Shown: positions 29,959-38,257, counted from the first letter of the stretch. The stretch is 64,000 nt of DNA from an uncultured cyanobacterium (GCA_963744145.1 CAVUSO010000001.1:6880001-6944000), one strand, 5' to 3'. The notes: generated by a model from the letters alone, not told the origin. Numbers and translations are program-made.

Positions 29959-30039
29959 TTTTTTTCACCAATATCAATTGAGCCAATGAAATGTAGTTGT
30001 AATTTAGCCAGTACAACTACATTCCTGGGAAAACTAAAG

Positions 30040-30885
30040 TTAAACTAGACACTTTTCCTTGATCTGGATTTGTCGTCCCACTGCGATCGCGATCGGTTGT
30101 AAAGTGCGTACTAAATCTACCATTTCTGATAATGACAGTGCTTGTCTAGCATCAGAAACAGACTTTTCTGGTTCAGGGTGACACTCAATCATAATTCCAT
30201 CAGCTCCAGCTGCGATCGCTGCTTTAGCTAAACCTCCCACAAGTTCACTTTTTCCAGCAGCATGGGAAGGATCGACAATAATGGGTAAATGTGTCAACTG
30301 TTTTAATGCTACTACTGCCCCTAAATCTAGGACATTACGGGTATAATTATCGAAACTACGAATACCCCTTTCACATAAAATTACATCTGGATTTCCATGA
30401 CTAAGAATATATTCTGCGGCAAAAATGAATTCTTCGATCGTCGCAGCTAATCCTCGTTTTAACATCACAGGTTTTCCTGCTTGTCCTACGGCTTTTAGTA
30501 AGTCAAAGTTTTGCATATTGCGGCTACCTATTTGTAAGATATCTGCATGAGCAACCACTGGTTCAATTTGGCTAATTGACATTACTTCCGTGATCACTGG
30601 AATATTGTAAGTATGACGAATCTGATTTAAAATTTCTAATCCTGCTACACCTAATCCTTGGAAAGAATAAGGAGATGTGCGCGGTTTGTATACACCACCT
30701 CGGATAATTTGCACTGAAGTATGAGCTAAATGACTAGCTACCTGCTCCATCTGGGTTAAATTTTCCACAGCACAAGGTCCACCAATAATCACAATATCTT
30801 GATCACCAATACTGACTTGAGAGGATATTTTGATAATGCTCTGGTGTTCTGGGTGAATTTTGCTGACAAGTTTAGCGTTTAACAT
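30040..30885 (-). CDS. aroF: DAHP synthase (type I-beta), short form without an N-terminal regulatory domain
   Basis: GGPCAVE, GGVYKPRTSPYSFQG, IGSRNMQNF, LCERGIR, DPSH; only 281 aa. Confidence 0.95.
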   Translation of the reverse strand: MLNAKLVSKIHPEHQSIIKISSQVSIGDQDIVIIGGPCAVENLTQMEQVASHLAHTSVQIIRGGVYKPRTSPYSFQGLGVAGLEILNQIRHTYNIPVITEVMSISQIEPVVAHADILQIGSRNMQNFDLLKAVGQAGKPVMLKRGLAATIEEFIFAAEYILSHGNPDVILCERGIRSFDNYTRNVLDLGAVVALKQLTHLPIIVDPSHAAGKSELVGGLAKAAIAAGADGIMIECHPEPEKSVSDARQALSLSEMVDLVRTLQPIAIAVGRQIQIKEKCLV

Positions 30886-30917
30886 TTGGTACTCCGATGG
30901 AAAGTAATATGGTTAAT

Positions 30918-30949
30918 AAAAAAGCCCAGAACTTTAAAAGTTCCGGGCT
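30918..30949 (-). terminator. Attenuator terminator 2 (proximal to aroF)
   Basis: Minus strand AGCCCGGAACTT-TTA-AAGTTCTGGGCT followed by a T-run. Confidence 0.85.
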
Positions 30950-30975
30950 GAGGTGACAAGCGACATAGCAATTAC

Positions 30976-31041
30976 CTACCCAGAACTGTTTCTGAGCCAA
31001 TAGTAAAAGCTAAAAAACCAATGATTGAGATTTGTGGTCAT
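30976..31041 (-). CDS. Putative aromatic amino-acid leader peptide 2 (MTTNLNHWFFSFYYWLRNSSG)
   Basis: Hand-translated; 7 of 8 consecutive codons are Trp/Phe/Tyr; sits just upstream of a terminator and aroF. Confidence 0.85.
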   Translation of the reverse strand: MTTNLNHWFFSFYYWLRNSSG

Positions 31042-31071
31042 GTTCGCTCGTAGTTTTGAGGACTGTAGACT

Positions 31072-31106
31072 AAAAAACGAAAAACCGCAGAGTTGCTTCT
31101 GCGGTT
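31072..31106 (-). terminator. Attenuator terminator 1 (distal)
   Basis: Minus strand AACCGCAGA-AGCAAC-TCTGCGGTT followed by TTTCGTTTTTT. Confidence 0.85.
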
Positions 31107-31134
31107 CACTTGGGTATCCAATCCAAATCTGGAT

Positions 31135-31191
31135 TCACTCCCTGTGAACCGATCTATGCCAAAAGTAAAAGTAATAATTGCTGGTGGGCAT
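31135..31191 (-). CDS. Putative aromatic amino-acid leader peptide 1 (MPTSNYYFYFWHRSVHRE)
   Basis: Hand-translated; six consecutive Tyr/Phe/Trp codons; directly upstream of a terminator. Confidence 0.85.
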   Translation of the reverse strand: MPTSNYYFYFWHRSVHRE

Positions 31192-31237
31192 GAGCTTGTT
31201 TTTGCGGTTGAACGCTTAGTTTATCGTTAGGCTTATA

Positions 31238-31266
31238 TATATATCAAGTAATCAGGGATTTGTCAA
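31238..31266 (-). promoter_or_regulatory. Putative sigma70-type promoter for the leader-aroF transcript
   Basis: Minus strand TTGACA-17 nt-TATATA, with TG just upstream of the -10. Confidence 0.55.
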
Positions 31267-31298: not shown

Positions 31299-31424
31299 TA
31301 GACAAGAAAGCAAAAATAAATAGGACAGGCAAGATGCCTGTCCCACAAAAGTGATTTTTTCTGGTGGGACAGGCATCTTGCCTGTCAATAAATAGATCAA
31401 TAAGGACTTTTGCTTTCTTGTCTA
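31299..31424 (+). mobile_element. MITE family A, complete 126-bp copy
   Basis: Perfect 17-bp TIRs tagacaagaaagcaaaa / ttttgctttcttgtcta with TA ends; internal inverted gacaggcaagatgcctgtcccac. Confidence 0.88.
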
Positions 31425-31906
31425 TTGATGTTTGCGCGATCGCATTTTCCTGGGTTAGTCAAGTCCTGGGGATGCGATCGGCATTTCATCCAATTGGCCA
31501 AATCTGAGTAGTGGTGGCGATAGTGGCACCAAGGTTTAATCTTGAGTTTTAGTTGAGCGATCGCCATTTCACAAGGGGAAATTTAGCTGTGATCGCCAAT
31601 CACACGCCACCACCAAAACAGACCGGGAAAAACTCTAATTTTCCAGAGAAACTGCAAAATATTCAAAATCTCACCAAATATCAATCGACCTAAACGCTAT
31701 ACTGGACTTAAATAAAGGTAATTTAGCTCCTTGGATGTCCTTAAAAGAAGAAGACAAAAATGGGCGATTGTACCTGTGAATGCTTCGGTCAAATTCAAGT
31801 TTGTAATGAGTTTCATTTTGTATTTCGGGAGGATGCTGTATTGCAAGATCCCTACTTATTCAAGAACTTAAGCACAAAGTTACGAAGCGAGCAGAGTAAT
31901 AACATC

Positions 31907-32470
31907 ATGACTTCAATTCAATCTCCTCCCCAACTCTCCTTAGCAGATTTCCTAAAACTACCAGAAACTAAACCAGCAAGTGAATATATCAACGGTCAAA
32001 TCCACCAAAAACCTATGCCTAAAGGAAAACACAGCCGACTGCAAATCCGGTTAGCTACCGAAATTAATCGTGTGGGTGAACTCAATCGTTTAGCTTTTGC
32101 TTTTCCAGAGTTGCGCTGTACCTTTGGTGGACGTTCAATTGTCCCAGATATAACAGTTTTCTCCTGGGAGAGAATCCCTGTTGATGCGAATGGAGAAATC
32201 GAGAATGAATTTGAAATTCACCCAGATTGGACTATAGAAATACTGTCACCAGAACAAAGTTCAACTCGCGTCATTAACAAAATTTTATTCTGTTTGAATC
32301 AGGGAACAGAGCTAGGCTGGTTTCTCGATCCAAAAGAGCGTCTAATTATGACTTTCCAACCAGGAAAACAACCTGAAATTAAGCAAGAGCAAGATATTTT
32401 GCCAGTTTTAAGCTCTCTAACTGATTTACAGTTATCAGCTCAAGAAGTATTTAGTTGGCTAAATCTTTAA
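31907..32470 (+). CDS. Uma2 family endonuclease (copy 1 of a duplicated block)
   Basis: LPETKPASEY, PDWTIEILSP; ATG at 31907. Confidence 0.9.
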   Translation: MTSIQSPPQLSLADFLKLPETKPASEYINGQIHQKPMPKGKHSRLQIRLATEINRVGELNRLAFAFPELRCTFGGRSIVPDITVFSWERIPVDANGEIENEFEIHPDWTIEILSPEQSSTRVINKILFCLNQGTELGWFLDPKERLIMTFQPGKQPEIKQEQDILPVLSSLTDLQLSAQEVFSWLNL

Positions 32471-32739
32471 TTTAAGGGTGGTCAAATATGTTTGATATCT
32501 TCAAAAATCGGTTAGAAATAACAGGAACTCTCTGGACTGTAACGGCAATTCGGATTAGTGTGGGTCGTTCTACTGAGCCAATTGGTTCTGATTTACCCGT
32601 GATTAAAGATGCTTTGGGACATCCTTTAATTCCGGGTTCGAGTTTTAAAGGAGCTTGGCGATCGCGCTTAGAAAGTTTCCTACGTGGTATTGATTTGAGT
32701 TTAGCAGAAGATCCAGCTAATTTTAAAAGTCCAACCAGA
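32153..32739 (+). repeat. About 590-bp near-identical direct repeat (partner at 34592-35177)
   Basis: Uma2 3' part and csx7 5' part match by eye at an offset of about 2439 bp. Confidence 0.92.
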
Positions 32740-32970
32740 GCTCATCAAATCAAAACCTTAAAAGAACAGTACAAAGACGATGACTTTGCTTTGACAAAAA
32801 TAGAAGGATCTTCGCACATACAGAAGTTTAACGAAGTTCTAAAAAAACATTGGCAAAGGTGGGGAGAAATTTTGGGCAATCTCACTCTAGAAAATCGCAC
32901 TTATTTCACCCTAGATTTGCAATCAGACGCTATTTTAACGGCTACGGCGCTCGTCATCTTAAATATTTGA
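32488..32970 (+). pseudogene. Chimeric RAMP remnant: Csx7 (Cas7) N-terminus joined to a Csx10-like internal fragment
   Basis: PLIPGSSFKGAWRS RAMP motif followed by RTYFTLDLQSDAILT; no G-rich loop. Confidence 0.75.
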
Positions 32971-33004: not shown

Positions 33005-34325
33005 ATGCCTAGTATTCTGATAGTTACAGTCGGTGGTTCTCATCAACCTATTGTCACTGCTATTTGTAGCCTCAACCCCGATCGCGTCGTTTTTATTTGT
33101 TCGACTGGCAAGAAAGGTAGTGAATCACAAGTTATAGGAGATGGTACTCCCTGTGAAGTGAGGAAAGGACAAGAGCTGATTGAAAAATTGCCTAATATTC
33201 CCACACAAGCAAAGTTAGGATATCGTTTTGATGCCAATCGAGACTTAATCAAAATTCAAGAACCTGACGATCTCTCAGAATGCTATCAAAAAGCTGTATT
33301 AGGTATTCAAAATATCCAAGCAGAATTGCCTGATGCTCAAATTATGGCTGACTACACAGGTGGAACAAAAACGATGTCTGTAGCTTTAGCAATAGCTGCA
33401 CTCGATCATCGGGTTGAGTTATATCTGACTACAGCTGATCGCTCAAACATTATTAGAGTAGAAAGAGGAGAAATGACTTCACAAGCAATTGTCGCTCCTT
33501 TAGTTGTACAACGCACGATCGAGCAATTTCTACCGATAGTTTTACAGCAGTACAATTATCCAGCAGCGATCGCAGAACTCAGGCGACTTTTACCATCGAG
33601 GGAATTACCACATGAAACTAAACGAAAAATTCAAACTTTATGTACTGTTTGTTCTGGGTTTGACACTTGGGATAGATTTGAACACAAAGAAGCATTACTG
33701 TGTTTAGAATCTTACATGAGCAAATCAGAAATTCAGCCATTAGCTTTATTTCTTAAGCGCGTAATTAGTAGTCGTGGCAAGATTGATGAGAAATTTGATG
33801 CAAGTAGCGGAACCAAAGGTCATTCTTATGAAATTGTCCAAGATTCTACTACTTAACGCTGAACGACGTGCTAAACAAGAAAGATATGATGATGCAGTTG
33901 GTAGACTCTACAGAGCATTAGAACTATTAGCTCAAATTAGACTGTTAGTTACCTATGACATCAAGACAGGTGATGTGGACATTGAAAAATTACCAGAACC
34001 TTTGCGAAATGAGTATGAAAAAATGCGTTCTCCAGACAAAGGAAAAATACAATTAGCTTTGAAAAAGAGCTACGAACTTTTGGCAGAATTTCCTAACGAT
34101 CCGATAGGAAGACTTTACCAAGAAAATGCAAATCGAATTATTAATGCACTTGAAACCCGTAATAATTCATTATTTGCTCACGGATTTCAACCTATCACAG
34201 AGAGTGATTATCAAAAGGTTAGTGAAGTTTTTGTCAATTTCATTGAAACTTGTATTACTGCTGTTGTTCCAGCTAAACTAAAGTCACAGCCTCCCCAGTT
34301 TCCTACGAACTATACCCTTGAATAA
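33005..34325 (+). pseudogene. TIGR02710 / Csm6-like CARF-HEPN ribonuclease, frameshifted
   Basis: TVGGS and DYTGGTKTMS (CARF); RYDDAVGRLYRALE and RNNSLFAHG (HEPN); one extra T near 33845 splits EIVQD|LLLNAERRA. Confidence 0.88.
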
Positions 34326-34342
34326 TCCCATTAATAATTACC

Positions 34343-34909
34343 ATGATTTCATCAGTGCAATCTCCTCCCCAACTTTCTTTAGCAGATTTCCTAAAACTGC
34401 CAGAAACTAAGCCAGCTAGTGAATATATCGATGGTCAAATCTACCAAAAACCCATGCCTAAAGGTAAACATAGTTCAATCCAAAGTTTGTTAACTCCTGC
34501 TATTAATCAAGTAGGTATGCCCAAAAAGATAGCGCGTGCATTTACAGAATTACGCTGCACTTTTGGAGGTCGATCGCTCGTTCCAGACATCACAGTTTTC
34601 TCCTGGGAGAGAATCCCTGTTGATGCGAATGGAGAAATCGAGAATGAATTTGAAATTCACCCAGATTGGACTATAGAAATACTGTCACCAGAACAAAGTT
34701 CAACTCGCGTCATTAACAAAATTTTATTCTGTTTGAATCAGGGAACAGAGCTAGGCTGGTTTCTCGATCCAAAAGAGCGTCTAATTATGACTTTCCAACC
34801 AGGAAAACAACCTGAAATTAAGCAAGAGCAAGATATTTTGCCAGTTTTAAGCTCTCTAACTGATTTACAGTTATCAGCTCAAGAAGTATTTAGTTGGTTA
34901 AATCTTTGA
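34343..34909 (+). CDS. Uma2 family endonuclease (copy 2)
   Basis: C-terminal half identical in protein sequence to the 31907 copy. Confidence 0.9.
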   Translation: MISSVQSPPQLSLADFLKLPETKPASEYIDGQIYQKPMPKGKHSSIQSLLTPAINQVGMPKKIARAFTELRCTFGGRSLVPDITVFSWERIPVDANGEIENEFEIHPDWTIEILSPEQSSTRVINKILFCLNQGTELGWFLDPKERLIMTFQPGKQPEIKQEQDILPVLSSLTDLQLSAQEVFSWLNL

Positions 34910-34925
34910 TTTAAGGGGGGCAAAT

Positions 34926-35186
34926 ATGTTTGATATTTTCAAAAATCGGTTAGAAATAATAGGAACTCTCTGGACTGTAACGGCAATTCGGATTAGTGCG
35001 GGTCGTTCTACTGAGCCAATTGGTTCTGATTTACCCGTGATTAAAGATGCTTTGGGACATCCTTTAATTCCGGGTTCGAGTTTTAAAGGAGCTTGGCGAT
35101 CGCGCTTAGAAAGTTTCCTACGTGGTATTGATTTGAGTTTAGCAGAAGATCCAGCTAATTTCACAAGTCCAACCAGAACTATTTGA
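34926..35186 (+). pseudogene. Csx7 (Cas7 RAMP) N-terminal fragment
   Basis: MFDIFKNRLEI...PLIPGSSFKG; stops after 86 aa. Confidence 0.8.
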
Positions 35187-36809: not shown

Positions 36810-37181
36810 ATGGAGAAAGAAATGACCTGGGAAGTTAGGTTTACAGAGGAGTTTGAGCAAGAGTTCGCAAACCTTGATCCAGAAACCCAAGACAAAATTA
36901 TTGCGCGAGTAATACTACTTAAAGAAAAAGGCCCACATCTTCGGGTTCCTTACAGTTCAGGTATCAAAGGGTCTCGTTTTGGACATATGCGAGAACTACG
37001 AGTACAACATAGCGGGAAACCGTATAGAATCTTGTATGCTTTTGATCCCCGCAGGGTTGCAGTCCTTCTGTTAGTAGGTAACAAGGCTGGTAACGACCGC
37101 TGGTATGAAGAGAATATACCACAAGCAGATGAGCTCTACGCTGAATGGCTAGGAGGGCTTGGGCTAAGAGTGCTTGAGTAA
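36810..37181 (+). CDS. RelE/ParE superfamily (HigB-like) toxin
   Basis: GPHL..PYSS, MRELR, RILYAFDPRR.AVLL..GNK..RWY. Confidence 0.9.
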   Translation: MEKEMTWEVRFTEEFEQEFANLDPETQDKIIARVILLKEKGPHLRVPYSSGIKGSRFGHMRELRVQHSGKPYRILYAFDPRRVAVLLLVGNKAGNDRWYEENIPQADELYAEWLGGLGLRVLE

Positions 37182-37219
37182 TAAGAGCGATAACACTATG
37201 AAATTGGACACAAGTTGAA

Positions 37220-37879
37220 ATGAAAACAAAGCCTTTTAGTGAATTGCTAGAACAGTTGACACCAGAGAGAAGAGCAAAGATCGAAACTCACGTTCAACTC
37301 GCGTTGCTTCATCATAACCTTCTAGAACTTCAAGAATCATTGGGCATAACTCAAGAGGATATGAAAAAAAACCATAACGTTGTTGAGTTGGCTTTGTCCG
37401 AATGGGAAAATCACGATGATATTCAAGTTTCTACTCTCTCTGGGTACATCAAAGCTCTTGGTGGAAGTCTCAAATTAGTTGCTCATTTTCCTGATAAGGA
37501 GGTTGTAAATAAGGAAAAAAAAATGTGGGAAATTGAGTATACAGACGAATTCGAGCAATGGTGGCTAACACTTGATGCAGCAACACAAACTTCTATTGAC
37601 ACAGTTGTAAAGTTGCTTGAAAAAAGGGGGCCGAATCTTGGTGATCCCTACAGTTCAGATATCAAGGGATCTCGTCACACAAACCTACGGGAACTGCGTA
37701 TACAACATAAAGGAGATCCAATACGGATCTTGTATGCGTTCGATCCCCGTAGAGTTGCTGTACTTCTTATAGGAGGTAACAAAAAGGGTAACGATCGCTG
37801 GTACGAAGAGAATGTACCCAAAGCAGATCGGCTCTATCACGAACTCTTGCAAGAACTTGAGGATGAAGGGTCAATATGA
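37220..37879 (+). CDS. In-frame fusion of an HTH (HigA-like) antitoxin and a second HigB-like toxin (internal ATG at 37523)
   Basis: First half resembles the 37952 antitoxin and second half the 36810 toxin. Confidence 0.85.
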   Translation: MKTKPFSELLEQLTPERRAKIETHVQLALLHHNLLELQESLGITQEDMKKNHNVVELALSEWENHDDIQVSTLSGYIKALGGSLKLVAHFPDKEVVNKEKKMWEIEYTDEFEQWWLTLDAATQTSIDTVVKLLEKRGPNLGDPYSSDIKGSRHTNLRELRIQHKGDPIRILYAFDPRRVAVLLIGGNKKGNDRWYEENVPKADRLYHELLQELEDEGSI

Positions 37880-37951
37880 AGAAAAAGCATTTGAGTCAGT
37901 TAACAACCCACCGTCCTTATGATAACAGAACAAAATTGAACACAAGTTGAT

Positions 37952-38257
37952 ATGAAAACAAAACCTTTTAGTGAATTGCGAAAGCGAATGACACCTGAGC
38001 AAAAAGCAGAGAGTGAAACTCGTTTTCAACTTGCATTACTCCATCTCACCCTGACAGAATTACAAGAGTCATTAGGAGTTAGTCAAAATGGCACAGAAAA
38101 AAATTCCAATGTAGTTCAGTCTGCTTTATCGGAATTGGAGAACGAAAACGATATTCAAGTTTCTACTCTCTCCAAGTACATCAAAGCTCTTGGTGGAAAT
38201 CTCAAATTAGTTGCTCAATTTCCCGACAAAGATGTAGTTATTTCTCAATTTCAGTAA
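37952..38257 (+). CDS. XRE/HigA-like antitoxin
   Basis: LGVSQ..ALSELE..DIQVSTL.KYIKALGG.L. Confidence 0.88.
   Translation: MKTKPFSELRKRMTPEQKAESETRFQLALLHLTLTELQESLGVSQNGTEKNSNVVQSALSELENENDIQVSTLSKYIKALGGNLKLVAQFPDKDVVISQFQ

Follow-up and report, generated by a model that had tools for sequence, protein, structure and literature searches.

Ribosome stalling ahead of a DAHP synthase gene has been described in Corynebacterium glutamicum, where aroF follows a leader ORF, aroR, with an aromatic (Phe-Tyr-Phe) run at which stalling raises transcription (Neshat et al. 2014, as summarised in the available part of PMC11802643). The locus reported here likewise places aromatic leaders before a DAHP synthase gene; aroR, however, is a single module without a Trp codon in another phylum, whereas here there are two modules, with Phe, Tyr and Trp codons (PMC11802643, same part). 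Since the supply of Tyr is described there as having no effect on aroR despite its Tyr codon, the codons of such a leader need not all be sensed. With the trpL, pheL and pheST leaders of Escherichia coli, as far as the same text treats them, the present locus shares an upstream ORF (uORF) rich in amino acids of the pathway and an antiterminator that is mutually exclusive with an intrinsic terminator, but the E. coli leaders are single modules that read one amino acid each (PMC11802643). For cyanobacteria, a 2016 survey states in its accessible portion that reliable data on attenuation were lacking (PMC4833913).

We analysed a window of 64,000 nucleotides from an uncultured cyanobacterium (GCA_963744145.1, CAVUSO010000001.1:6880001-6944000), and all coordinates count from its first letter. 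An initial annotation of this DNA had placed a promoter, two leader peptides, two terminators and two alternative pairings in series upstream of aroF; all of these were located in the sequence at the minus-strand coordinates below, and both terminators were found by a consensus scan. In the order of transcription, the features are:

31238..31266, minus strand: sigma-70-type promoter candidate, TTGACA (31266-31261), 17 nt, TATATA (31243-31238), with an extended -10 (TG-n-TATATA)
31135..31191, minus strand: leader ORF 1, MPTSNYYFYFWHRSVHRE, with 3 Tyr, 2 Phe and 1 Trp, read from the sequence, without a Shine-Dalgarno (SD) site
31140..31151, minus strand: 5' arm of antiterminator 1, codons S-V-H-R of leader 1, with an alternative short hairpin with 31138-31132 over the stop codon
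31120..31135, minus strand: inner hairpin inside antiterminator 1, predicted by folding, its sequence variable among homologs
31102..31114, minus strand: 3' arm of antiterminator 1, its last 5 nt being the base of terminator 1
31072..31106, minus strand: intrinsic terminator 1, a 9-10 bp stem (31106-31083) and a U tract to 31072, from the consensus scan
30976..31041, minus strand: leader ORF 2, MTTNLNHWFFSFYYWLRNSSG, with 3 Phe, 2 Tyr and 2 Trp, read from the sequence, without an SD site
30979..30987, minus strand: 5' arm of antiterminator 2, the final three codons of leader 2, closely matching the 3' arm of terminator 2 in sequence
30918..30949, minus strand: intrinsic terminator 2, a 12-bp stem (30949-30923) and a U tract to 30918, from the consensus scan, its 5' arm being the partner of antiterminator 2
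30892..30895, minus strand: SD site (GGAG) of aroF, read from the sequence, outside both hairpins
30040..30885, minus strand: aroF, short type I-beta DAHP synthase of 281 aa, TIGR01361 above cut-off (NCBIfam)

The predicted antiterminators pair 31151-31144 with 31109-31102 and 30987-30979 with 30947-30939, overlapping the terminator by just 5 nt in module 1 and taking up its whole 5' arm in module 2. A third terminator-like match, at 31346-31320, was rejected from the system as part of a high-copy repeat upstream of the promoter.

Aromatic codons make up 6 of 18 codons in leader 1 and 7 of 21 in leader 2, and the 356-nt leader folds with a z score of -3.1 against 100 shuffles. When all 4575 ATG-started ORFs of at least 150 aa in the genome were compared for an aromatic-rich uORF and a terminator within 500 nt upstream, aroF alone had this arrangement, and it has two; the excess of the double leader at aroF far beyond chance is confirmed.

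The TTGACA-17-TATATA promoter of the initial annotation is present as sequence, and its position is supported by homologs, although the consensus scan did not list it because the -10 hexamer lacks the final T. The motif TTGAC-N18-TA..T, with at most one mismatch, occurred 5' of module 1 in 48/91 non-redundant homologs versus 5/87 control windows, and 34 of the 48 carry the TG extension. Promoter-like motifs in the windows between and after the modules were found in 1/91 and 5/94 homologs, respectively; a promoter-like match inside terminator 2 was rejected, its conservation (5/94) being at background. As the conserved promoter motif lies ahead of module 1 and the two internal windows hold no such motif, a single transcript most likely crosses both terminators.

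The ATG of aroF lies at 30885, and the sole Pfam match of its product is PF00793. The 281-aa protein has the catalytic barrel and is without the N-terminal ferredoxin-like regulatory domain (PF18152): its residue 5 aligns with residue 70 of solved chains of 333-338 aa, among them the 338-aa chain 1rzm. The genome encodes a second DAHP synthase of 352 aa with PF18152 at residues 1-67; this paralog has no aromatic leader, and a whole-genome profile scan placed each module solely at the 281-aa aroF locus. Truncated DAHP synthases missing the regulatory domain are described as unregulated, and the missing domain together with that earlier work suggests that the short enzyme is insensitive to feedback. 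For cyanobacterial DAHP synthase, feedback inhibition is given as the expected control in the accessible text of PMC8750797. An SD-like site precedes aroF in 76/91 and 81/94 homologs. No conserved gene follows aroF (the biggest cluster of downstream neighbours covers 8/139 loci, and the window's own neighbour occurs in 4), and no relatives of the enzyme were found among viral contigs.

Of 401 genomes sampled from the class, 141 gave a match to short-form aroF. For G428, whose class has loci titled Obscuribacterales or Melainabacteria, the matches number 24/121 among class and 74/107 among order genomes. We gathered 150 short-form loci and dropped L134, L165 and L166, in which the contig ends at or inside the gene. 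Module 1 followed by module 2 was scored in 138 of the 147 loci left, a count that leans upward because the profiles derive from the same loci; six were scored with module 2 only and three with module 1 only, and neither module was found at any of 16 long-form loci. The raw uORF list is consistent with the figure of 138/147, and RNA-only patterns placed both modules in 114/147 short-form loci. The single-module loci comprise L012, L161 and L164 (module 1) and L014, L138, L159 and L163 (module 2), while L155 and L156, scored as module 2 only, show by eye a diverged module 1 with leader, stems and terminator. A pattern scan of GTDB for module 1 matched at least 120 stretches, with aroF downstream in 72 of the 80 matches listed with flanks; among the 120 matches listed, seven are chance matches from other phyla without an aromatic leader. 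Carriers include Nostoc, Calothrix, Microcoleus, Coleofasciculus, Okeania, Stenomitos, Phormidesmis, a Gloeobacterales MAG and Obscuribacterales MAGs, with Calothrix sp. PCC 7716, Microcoleus vaginatus and Stenomitos frigidus ULC18 as cultured examples; the predicted double switch is conserved in cyanobacteria and in non-photosynthetic relatives. In a FastTree phylogeny the oxygenic short forms nest within sister-class sequences, and we make no claim of transfer because backbone support is weak and the long form is the sole outgroup. Given their shared core, the two modules might plausibly have arisen by duplication, though the arm sits in a different frame in each.

Genomes with duplicated genes were informative about what the leaders read. 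The comparison of paralogs covers most of the short-form loci of the Obscuribacterales-type class of G428 and includes 25 genomes with at least two. In eight related genomes (G431, G551 and G583-G588), one copy has Tyr runs in both leaders (for example MSARTYYYYYSIEVHLS and MRLTQNYYYYRRMLRGSPR) and the other has Phe and Trp, of the MRNFGFFFWFSEVHPG type, with leader 2 uncalled at L358 and holding one Tyr at L325. The copies of G543 and G599 split into a Phe run versus Tyr plus Trp, partial or other splits are seen in G539, G596 and G601, and in the remaining 12 of the 25 genomes a clear leader is present in at most one copy. On the tree, Tyr-run and Phe-run copies fall into distinct clades with support of 1.0 and 0.98, respectively, which points to at least two splitting events. 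In each gene the two leaders change in step, so the amino-acid identity of their codons is under selection and the two modules likely serve one signal. At the sequence level, the two uORFs did not look like sensors of different signals, being alike in amino-acid make-up and changing together in paralogs. Most single-copy genomes have pan-aromatic leaders; the exceptions (G595 and G597 with Tyr/Trp, G598 with Phe) are assemblies that may lack a paralog.

The leaders behave as coding sequence in tests of reading frame that were anchored on the RNA arm, with relatives not thinned (n=127 for module 1, n=124 for module 2). In module 1, an ATG within 19 codons is in frame in 119/127 sequences, versus 10 and 0 for the other frames; stops within 12 codons upstream occur in 0/127 in frame, compared with 9 and 57 out of frame; and 4 codons past the arm a stop codon is found in 110/127, the stop of leader 1 being TGA in 111/127. 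In module 2, the ATG is in frame in 88/124 (19 and 6 in the other frames), and the stop lies 2 codons past the arm in 115/124, as TAA in 65, TGA in 34 and TAG in 16. Aromatic codons per 10 codons number 5.9, 2.3 and 1.7 in frames 0, 1 and 2 of module 1 and 6.7, 2.8 and 1.7 in those of module 2, and indels within the aligned coding stretch occur in multiples of three. Phe, Tyr and Trp are all present in 95% of leader 1 and 90% of leader 2 sequences among non-redundant homologs. The Phe codons UUU and UUC stand at 275:35 and 299:58 in the leaders versus 175:230 and 171:244 in aroF. SD-like sites ahead of the leaders were found in just 3/88 and 5/82 homologs, so that initiation may not be efficient. 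On the strength of the frame tests, the leader ORFs are probably translated.

The initial annotation had also proposed an alternative pairing in each module, and both pairings are present and covary. In sets thinned to at most 80% identity (n=91 for module 1, n=94 for module 2), antiterminator 1 was paired at 89.3% versus 82.8 ± 0.5% in shuffles (maximum 84.3%) and 26-50% in slid controls, with 86 compensatory cells versus 35 in shuffles. Antiterminator 2 was paired at 81.8% versus 76.5 ± 0.6% in shuffles and 16-53% in slid controls, with 86 compensatory cells versus 42 and with U-A/C-G swaps at two positions. In both antiterminators, covariation exceeds that of each of the 500 shuffles and of every slid control. 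A separate, independent count, made on 37 of 92 module-1 sequences, gave 91.6% pairing over 13 pairs and 49 compensatory cells versus 16.7, which 0/500 shuffles reached. When changes were mapped on the aroF protein tree, joint changes clearly exceeded the slid controls at two of five variable module-1 pairs (15 versus at most 9, and 21 versus at most 12), the other three showed no clear excess over those controls (7 versus 4, 11 versus 14, and 8 versus 10), and two module-2 pairs showed a modest one (12 versus 9 and 9 versus 5). Judged by this covariation, the predicted alternative stems are under selection. The expectation that the upstream regions of other short-form aroF genes would align with conserved W/F/Y uORFs and covarying stems was thereby borne out.

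Both terminators keep their stems and U tracts in homologs (tail median 8 T), the invariant positions being partly selected by the search pattern; at one locus, L297, no clear U tract follows module 2. The stem of terminator 1 shows A-U/G-C swaps at two positions in 8-9 of 91 homologs, and the stem of terminator 2 ends a median of 66 nt ahead of the aroF start codon. In module 1 no upstream 1:2 protector helix stands out, but the downstream stop-codon hairpin does (pairing 0.92-0.94 in 91 homologs, without compensatory changes). Module 2 has a weak upstream protector candidate over Phe-Trp codons (0.88 pairing, mostly G-U, without covariation). Neither the window stretch nor any of 12 homologous loci gave an Rfam match that reached gathering score; matches to trpB (RF04312) were rejected as terminator-driven, at 25.7 and 17.9 bits versus a gathering score of 59. 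The trpB motif belongs to Firmicutes and Fusobacteria (PMC11109978, in the part available).

To model the ribosome, each leader was folded as a transcript whose 3' end lies in the terminator loop, under a footprint reaching 12 nt past the A site. In this folding model, antiterminator 1 forms with a probability of at least 0.97 for A-site positions 2-11, the last of these being the Trp codon, and the probability drops to 0 from codon 12 onwards. Antiterminator 2 persists up to codon 16 and is gone from codon 17 onwards, the last Trp being codon 15. The proposed difference between a stalled and a running ribosome was thus reproduced by the model, with the antiterminator lost once the last aromatic codons are passed. 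With footprints of 9-13 nt the switch still falls directly behind the aromatic run, while at 15 nt the module-1 Trp fails to permit antitermination; the switch point is partly geometric by construction, because the footprint model forces the covered arm to be unpaired. The distance from Trp to arm is nearly fixed in homologs. Folding of the homologs free of the ribosome gave the antiterminator in 97% for module 1 and in 61% for module 2. Since that of module 1 forms without a ribosome and no upstream protector stands out there, an untranslated leader 1 is predicted to give read-through and not super-attenuation. In the full-length RNA at equilibrium, the terminator core forms almost wherever the ribosome is placed; the antiterminator of module 1 coexists there with a shortened hairpin. 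Because the terminator core wins or coexists at equilibrium, the choice would have to be kinetic.

We consider it very probable that aroF is preceded by two serial classical ribosome-stalling transcription attenuators that read the charging of aromatic tRNAs. This is the reading of the initial annotation for Phe, Tyr and Trp, and conservation, frame tests, covariation, geometry and the paralog split all support it. In this mechanism, RNA polymerase would start near 31230 and a ribosome would translate leader 1. When charged tRNA-Phe, -Tyr or -Trp is scarce, the ribosome would pause on the aromatic run and leave free the arm 12-13 nt past the Trp codon, which could then pair with the base of terminator 1 before the 3' arm of the terminator exists, giving read-through. 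When the tRNAs are charged, the ribosome would cover the arm and the stop codon, the terminator would fold and the transcript would end near 31075. Polymerases that pass terminator 1 would be tested again in the same way by leader 2 and terminator 2, with ends near 30920, and aroF would be transcribed only when both tests are passed. Since the modules read the same amino acids, the second would lower leak and widen the range while adding no new input. We infer that termination takes place in vivo, which way and how strongly it responds, and that the modules act independently; the multiplicative or sharper control that the initial annotation had proposed may follow from this.

The two modules might instead be unequal, with one sensing amino acids while the other works mainly as a pause, coupling or fail-safe element, or they might answer to differing depths of starvation. 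Antiterminator 1 takes only the base of its terminator and has the stop-codon hairpin, whereas antiterminator 2 takes the whole 5' arm, and the weak upstream protector candidate of module 2 and the ribosome-free folding (97% versus 61%) also set the modules apart. Each module is nevertheless found alone ahead of aroF in some loci, and paralog leaders switch amino acid together. We regard unequal roles, which are partly compatible with serial attenuation by stalling on uncharged tRNA, as rather unlikely.

The same RNA switch could also be driven by another sensor. In nascent-peptide arrest of the TnaC kind, an FYFW peptide would sense free aromatic amino acid in the exit tunnel and keep the ribosome on the antiterminator arm, close to the stop codon, such that abundance leads to termination. 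An F-Y-F-W core is present in both peptides at a fixed distance to the stop, and an arrested ribosome would presumably hold the arm while the terminator is transcribed, which would solve the timing. TGA ends leader 1 in 111/127, which also speaks for arrest, but this codon also belongs to the stop-codon hairpin. Against peptide sensing, Phe, Tyr and Trp interchange freely in the run, and paralogs carry pure Tyr or Phe runs. The V-H codons moreover are fixed as RNA (GTT in 115, with no synonymous Val codon listed, and CAC in 124 with CAT in 1), a fixation that is attributed to the antiterminator pairing. We hold peptide arrest to be improbable.

Post-transcriptional control, in which the hairpins would be processing or stability ends or would gate aroF translation and a ribosome on the leader would alter the fate of the mRNA, seems more doubtful still: cyanobacteria are without functional Rho (PMC13613805, available portion) and stem-loops mark many kinds of 3' end, but both hairpins have conserved U tracts and the aroF SD site lies outside terminator 2. 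That the RNA is a protein- or metabolite-binding switch (TRAP-, T-box- or riboswitch-like) whose ORFs are by-products of U-rich sites might account for the preference for UUU over UUC and for the missing SD sites, yet it is scarcely credible given the frame-specific ATG and stops, the three stop codons at one module-2 position, the triplet indels, the TAY runs that replace TTT runs in paralogs and the lack of any Rfam family at gathering score in the stretch and the 12 homologous loci scanned.

Beyond serial stalling-dependent attenuation as such, we lean towards a broader history, with appreciable reserve. The double leader may be an old, phylum-wide two-stage attenuator whose non-identical serial modules multiply their effect and stand in for the missing allosteric domain, with SD-less leaders and read-through as the untranslated default; codon changes alone may have rewritten its specificity, at least twice, into Tyr-, Phe-, Phe+Trp- and Tyr+Trp-controlled isozymes. 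E. coli divides the same step among the isozymes AroF, AroG and AroH, and the Obscuribacterales-type paralogs would be an RNA-level parallel.

A conserved leader-peptide attenuator in the short aroF lineage (141/401 genomes) would revise the picture of cyanobacterial attenuation, and it suggests that many filamentous cyanobacteria have a second entry into the shikimate pathway, one controlled through expression. The system could serve as a compact test of transcription-translation coupling in a Rho-less phylum, and serial attenuators for the same signal would allow a direct test of whether stacked switches multiply dynamic range, with the natural single-module, double-module and amino-acid-specialised versions as ready-made controls. 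It also bears on aromatic metabolite supply and may offer portable biosensors for Phe, Tyr and Trp. The idea that tandem modules compensate for runaway transcription was unsupported: of the 38 strict terminators in this genome, just 3 are found within 12 nt of a stop, with a median of 29. Cyanobacteria go unmentioned in the main text of PMC13323073.

A literature search returned no published description of the system, in line with the initial annotation, which knew of no characterised cyanobacterial example; motif tables in supplements and subscription papers could hold a prior prediction. The main texts of PMC2965389, PMC11109978 and PMC5737381 do not mention cyanobacteria or aroF, and the attenuator table of PMC1173090, in the part shown, has no cyanobacterium. 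What the locus holds is real, conserved and apparently undescribed so far: a probable variant of leader-peptide attenuation in which two modules read one signal ahead of a DAHP synthase without its regulatory domain, with an amino-acid specificity that can evolve.

Predicted single attenuators occur before aroF in other phyla, namely uORFC-13-1 of Acholeplasma (PMC8632094, available text) and the Shewanella aroF attenuator (PMC2659441, available text); the present locus shares the predicted uORF or attenuator, but each of these is Phe- or Tyr-only. The claim that attenuators are normally single needs a qualification: it holds for the aromatic aroF leader of Corynebacterium (PMC11802643, part available), but a tandem arrangement is known from mgtCBR of Salmonella and is presented as a singular case in the accessible part of PMC3641672. 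There, mgtM and mgtP are likewise two translated uORFs in one leader, each altering structure and read-through (PMC3641672), but the signals differ (ATP and proline), act additively and control a non-biosynthetic gene, whereas here the same amino-acid signal appears to be read twice. That text also contrasts mgtCBR with a leader of two intrinsic terminators; here each module has its own terminator. The tandem riboswitch of metE in Bacillus clausii shares two serial terminators, each with its own sensor, but its RNA binds the ligands directly and has no leader ORFs (PMC3641672, same part).

The likeness to trpL and pheL, which the initial annotation had taken as the layout, stands for the leader ORF, antiterminator and terminator but does not extend to the position of the arm or, as far as folding shows, to a module-1 protector. 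The trpL leader has a four-region layout; unlike it, the cyanobacterial leaders have the antiterminator 5' arm inside the ORF just before the stop, are SD-less and, in module 1, show no clear 1:2 protector. The basic mechanism is the textbook one, and what is new is the phylum, the serial design and the paralog split.

Short DAHP synthase genes preceded by one leader ORF, or by none, occur among the collected loci. In L310-L318, from deeper-branching genomes in the class of genome G428 (loci titled Obscuribacterales or Melainabacteria, non-photosynthetic relatives, some with duplicated short-form genes), module 1 is absent and each locus carries one Phe/Tyr-rich uORF, the gene behind it encoding a more distant short DAHP synthase. 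This single-uORF layout is possibly the older, one-module state. No leader was detected 5′ of the short DAHP synthase paralogs L291, L292, L321, L350, L370, L372 and L374, which form one clade with a support of 0.99.

The leader ORFs themselves vary among the homologs. In locus L032 (genome G424), an early TAA stops the leader 1 frame directly before the antiterminator arm (MFTANSYFYFWYP), while in its close relatives there is no stop at this site and reading continues; the early stop either occurs naturally or stems from an error in the sequence. The aromatic run is expanded internally in leader 2 of L069 and L158 and in leader 1 of L362 (examples: WFYGFYFWFGFYFW; YYYYYYY), which suggests that sensitivity is tuned through repeat gain. 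In module 2, a semi-conserved motif, TCATGC/TCGTGC/TCGCGC, lies 3-20 nt past the stop codon in 45 of 94 homologs.

Several further features flank aroF and its promoter in the window:

29980-30035: long, single-copy hairpin directly past the aroF stop, ahead of a 231-aa gene
31310-31395: 86-nt inverted-repeat element containing two palindromes, directly upstream of the promoter
31760-32970 and 34343-35186: local duplication, 91% identical across 843 nt
33005-34325: Csm6/CARF-like gene in two pieces, between the duplicate copies
36810-38257: RelE/HigB-like toxin and HTH antitoxin genes in tandem (labels by eye)

The 231-aa gene has no match in Pfam or NCBIfam, carries a methyltransferase-like motif as judged by eye, and sits directly downstream of aroF in just 4 of the 139 loci. 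The 86-nt element resembles a MITE or a dispersed repeat. BLAST finds 346 matches to it across the genome when both strands are included, and many of these are 100% identical. The duplication involves a Uma2 endonuclease gene and a truncated RAMP-family fragment; together with the split Csm6/CARF-like gene, these are what is left of a type III CRISPR locus. Within the toxin-antitoxin region, one ORF joins an antitoxin-like half to a toxin-like half.

Both leader 1 and leader 2 show a strong UUU bias, which may slow decoding through wobble or may provide the polymerase with a T-rich pause signal. In B. subtilis, TTNTTT is a NusG-dependent polymerase pause signal, to which such a signal in the leaders would be comparable.
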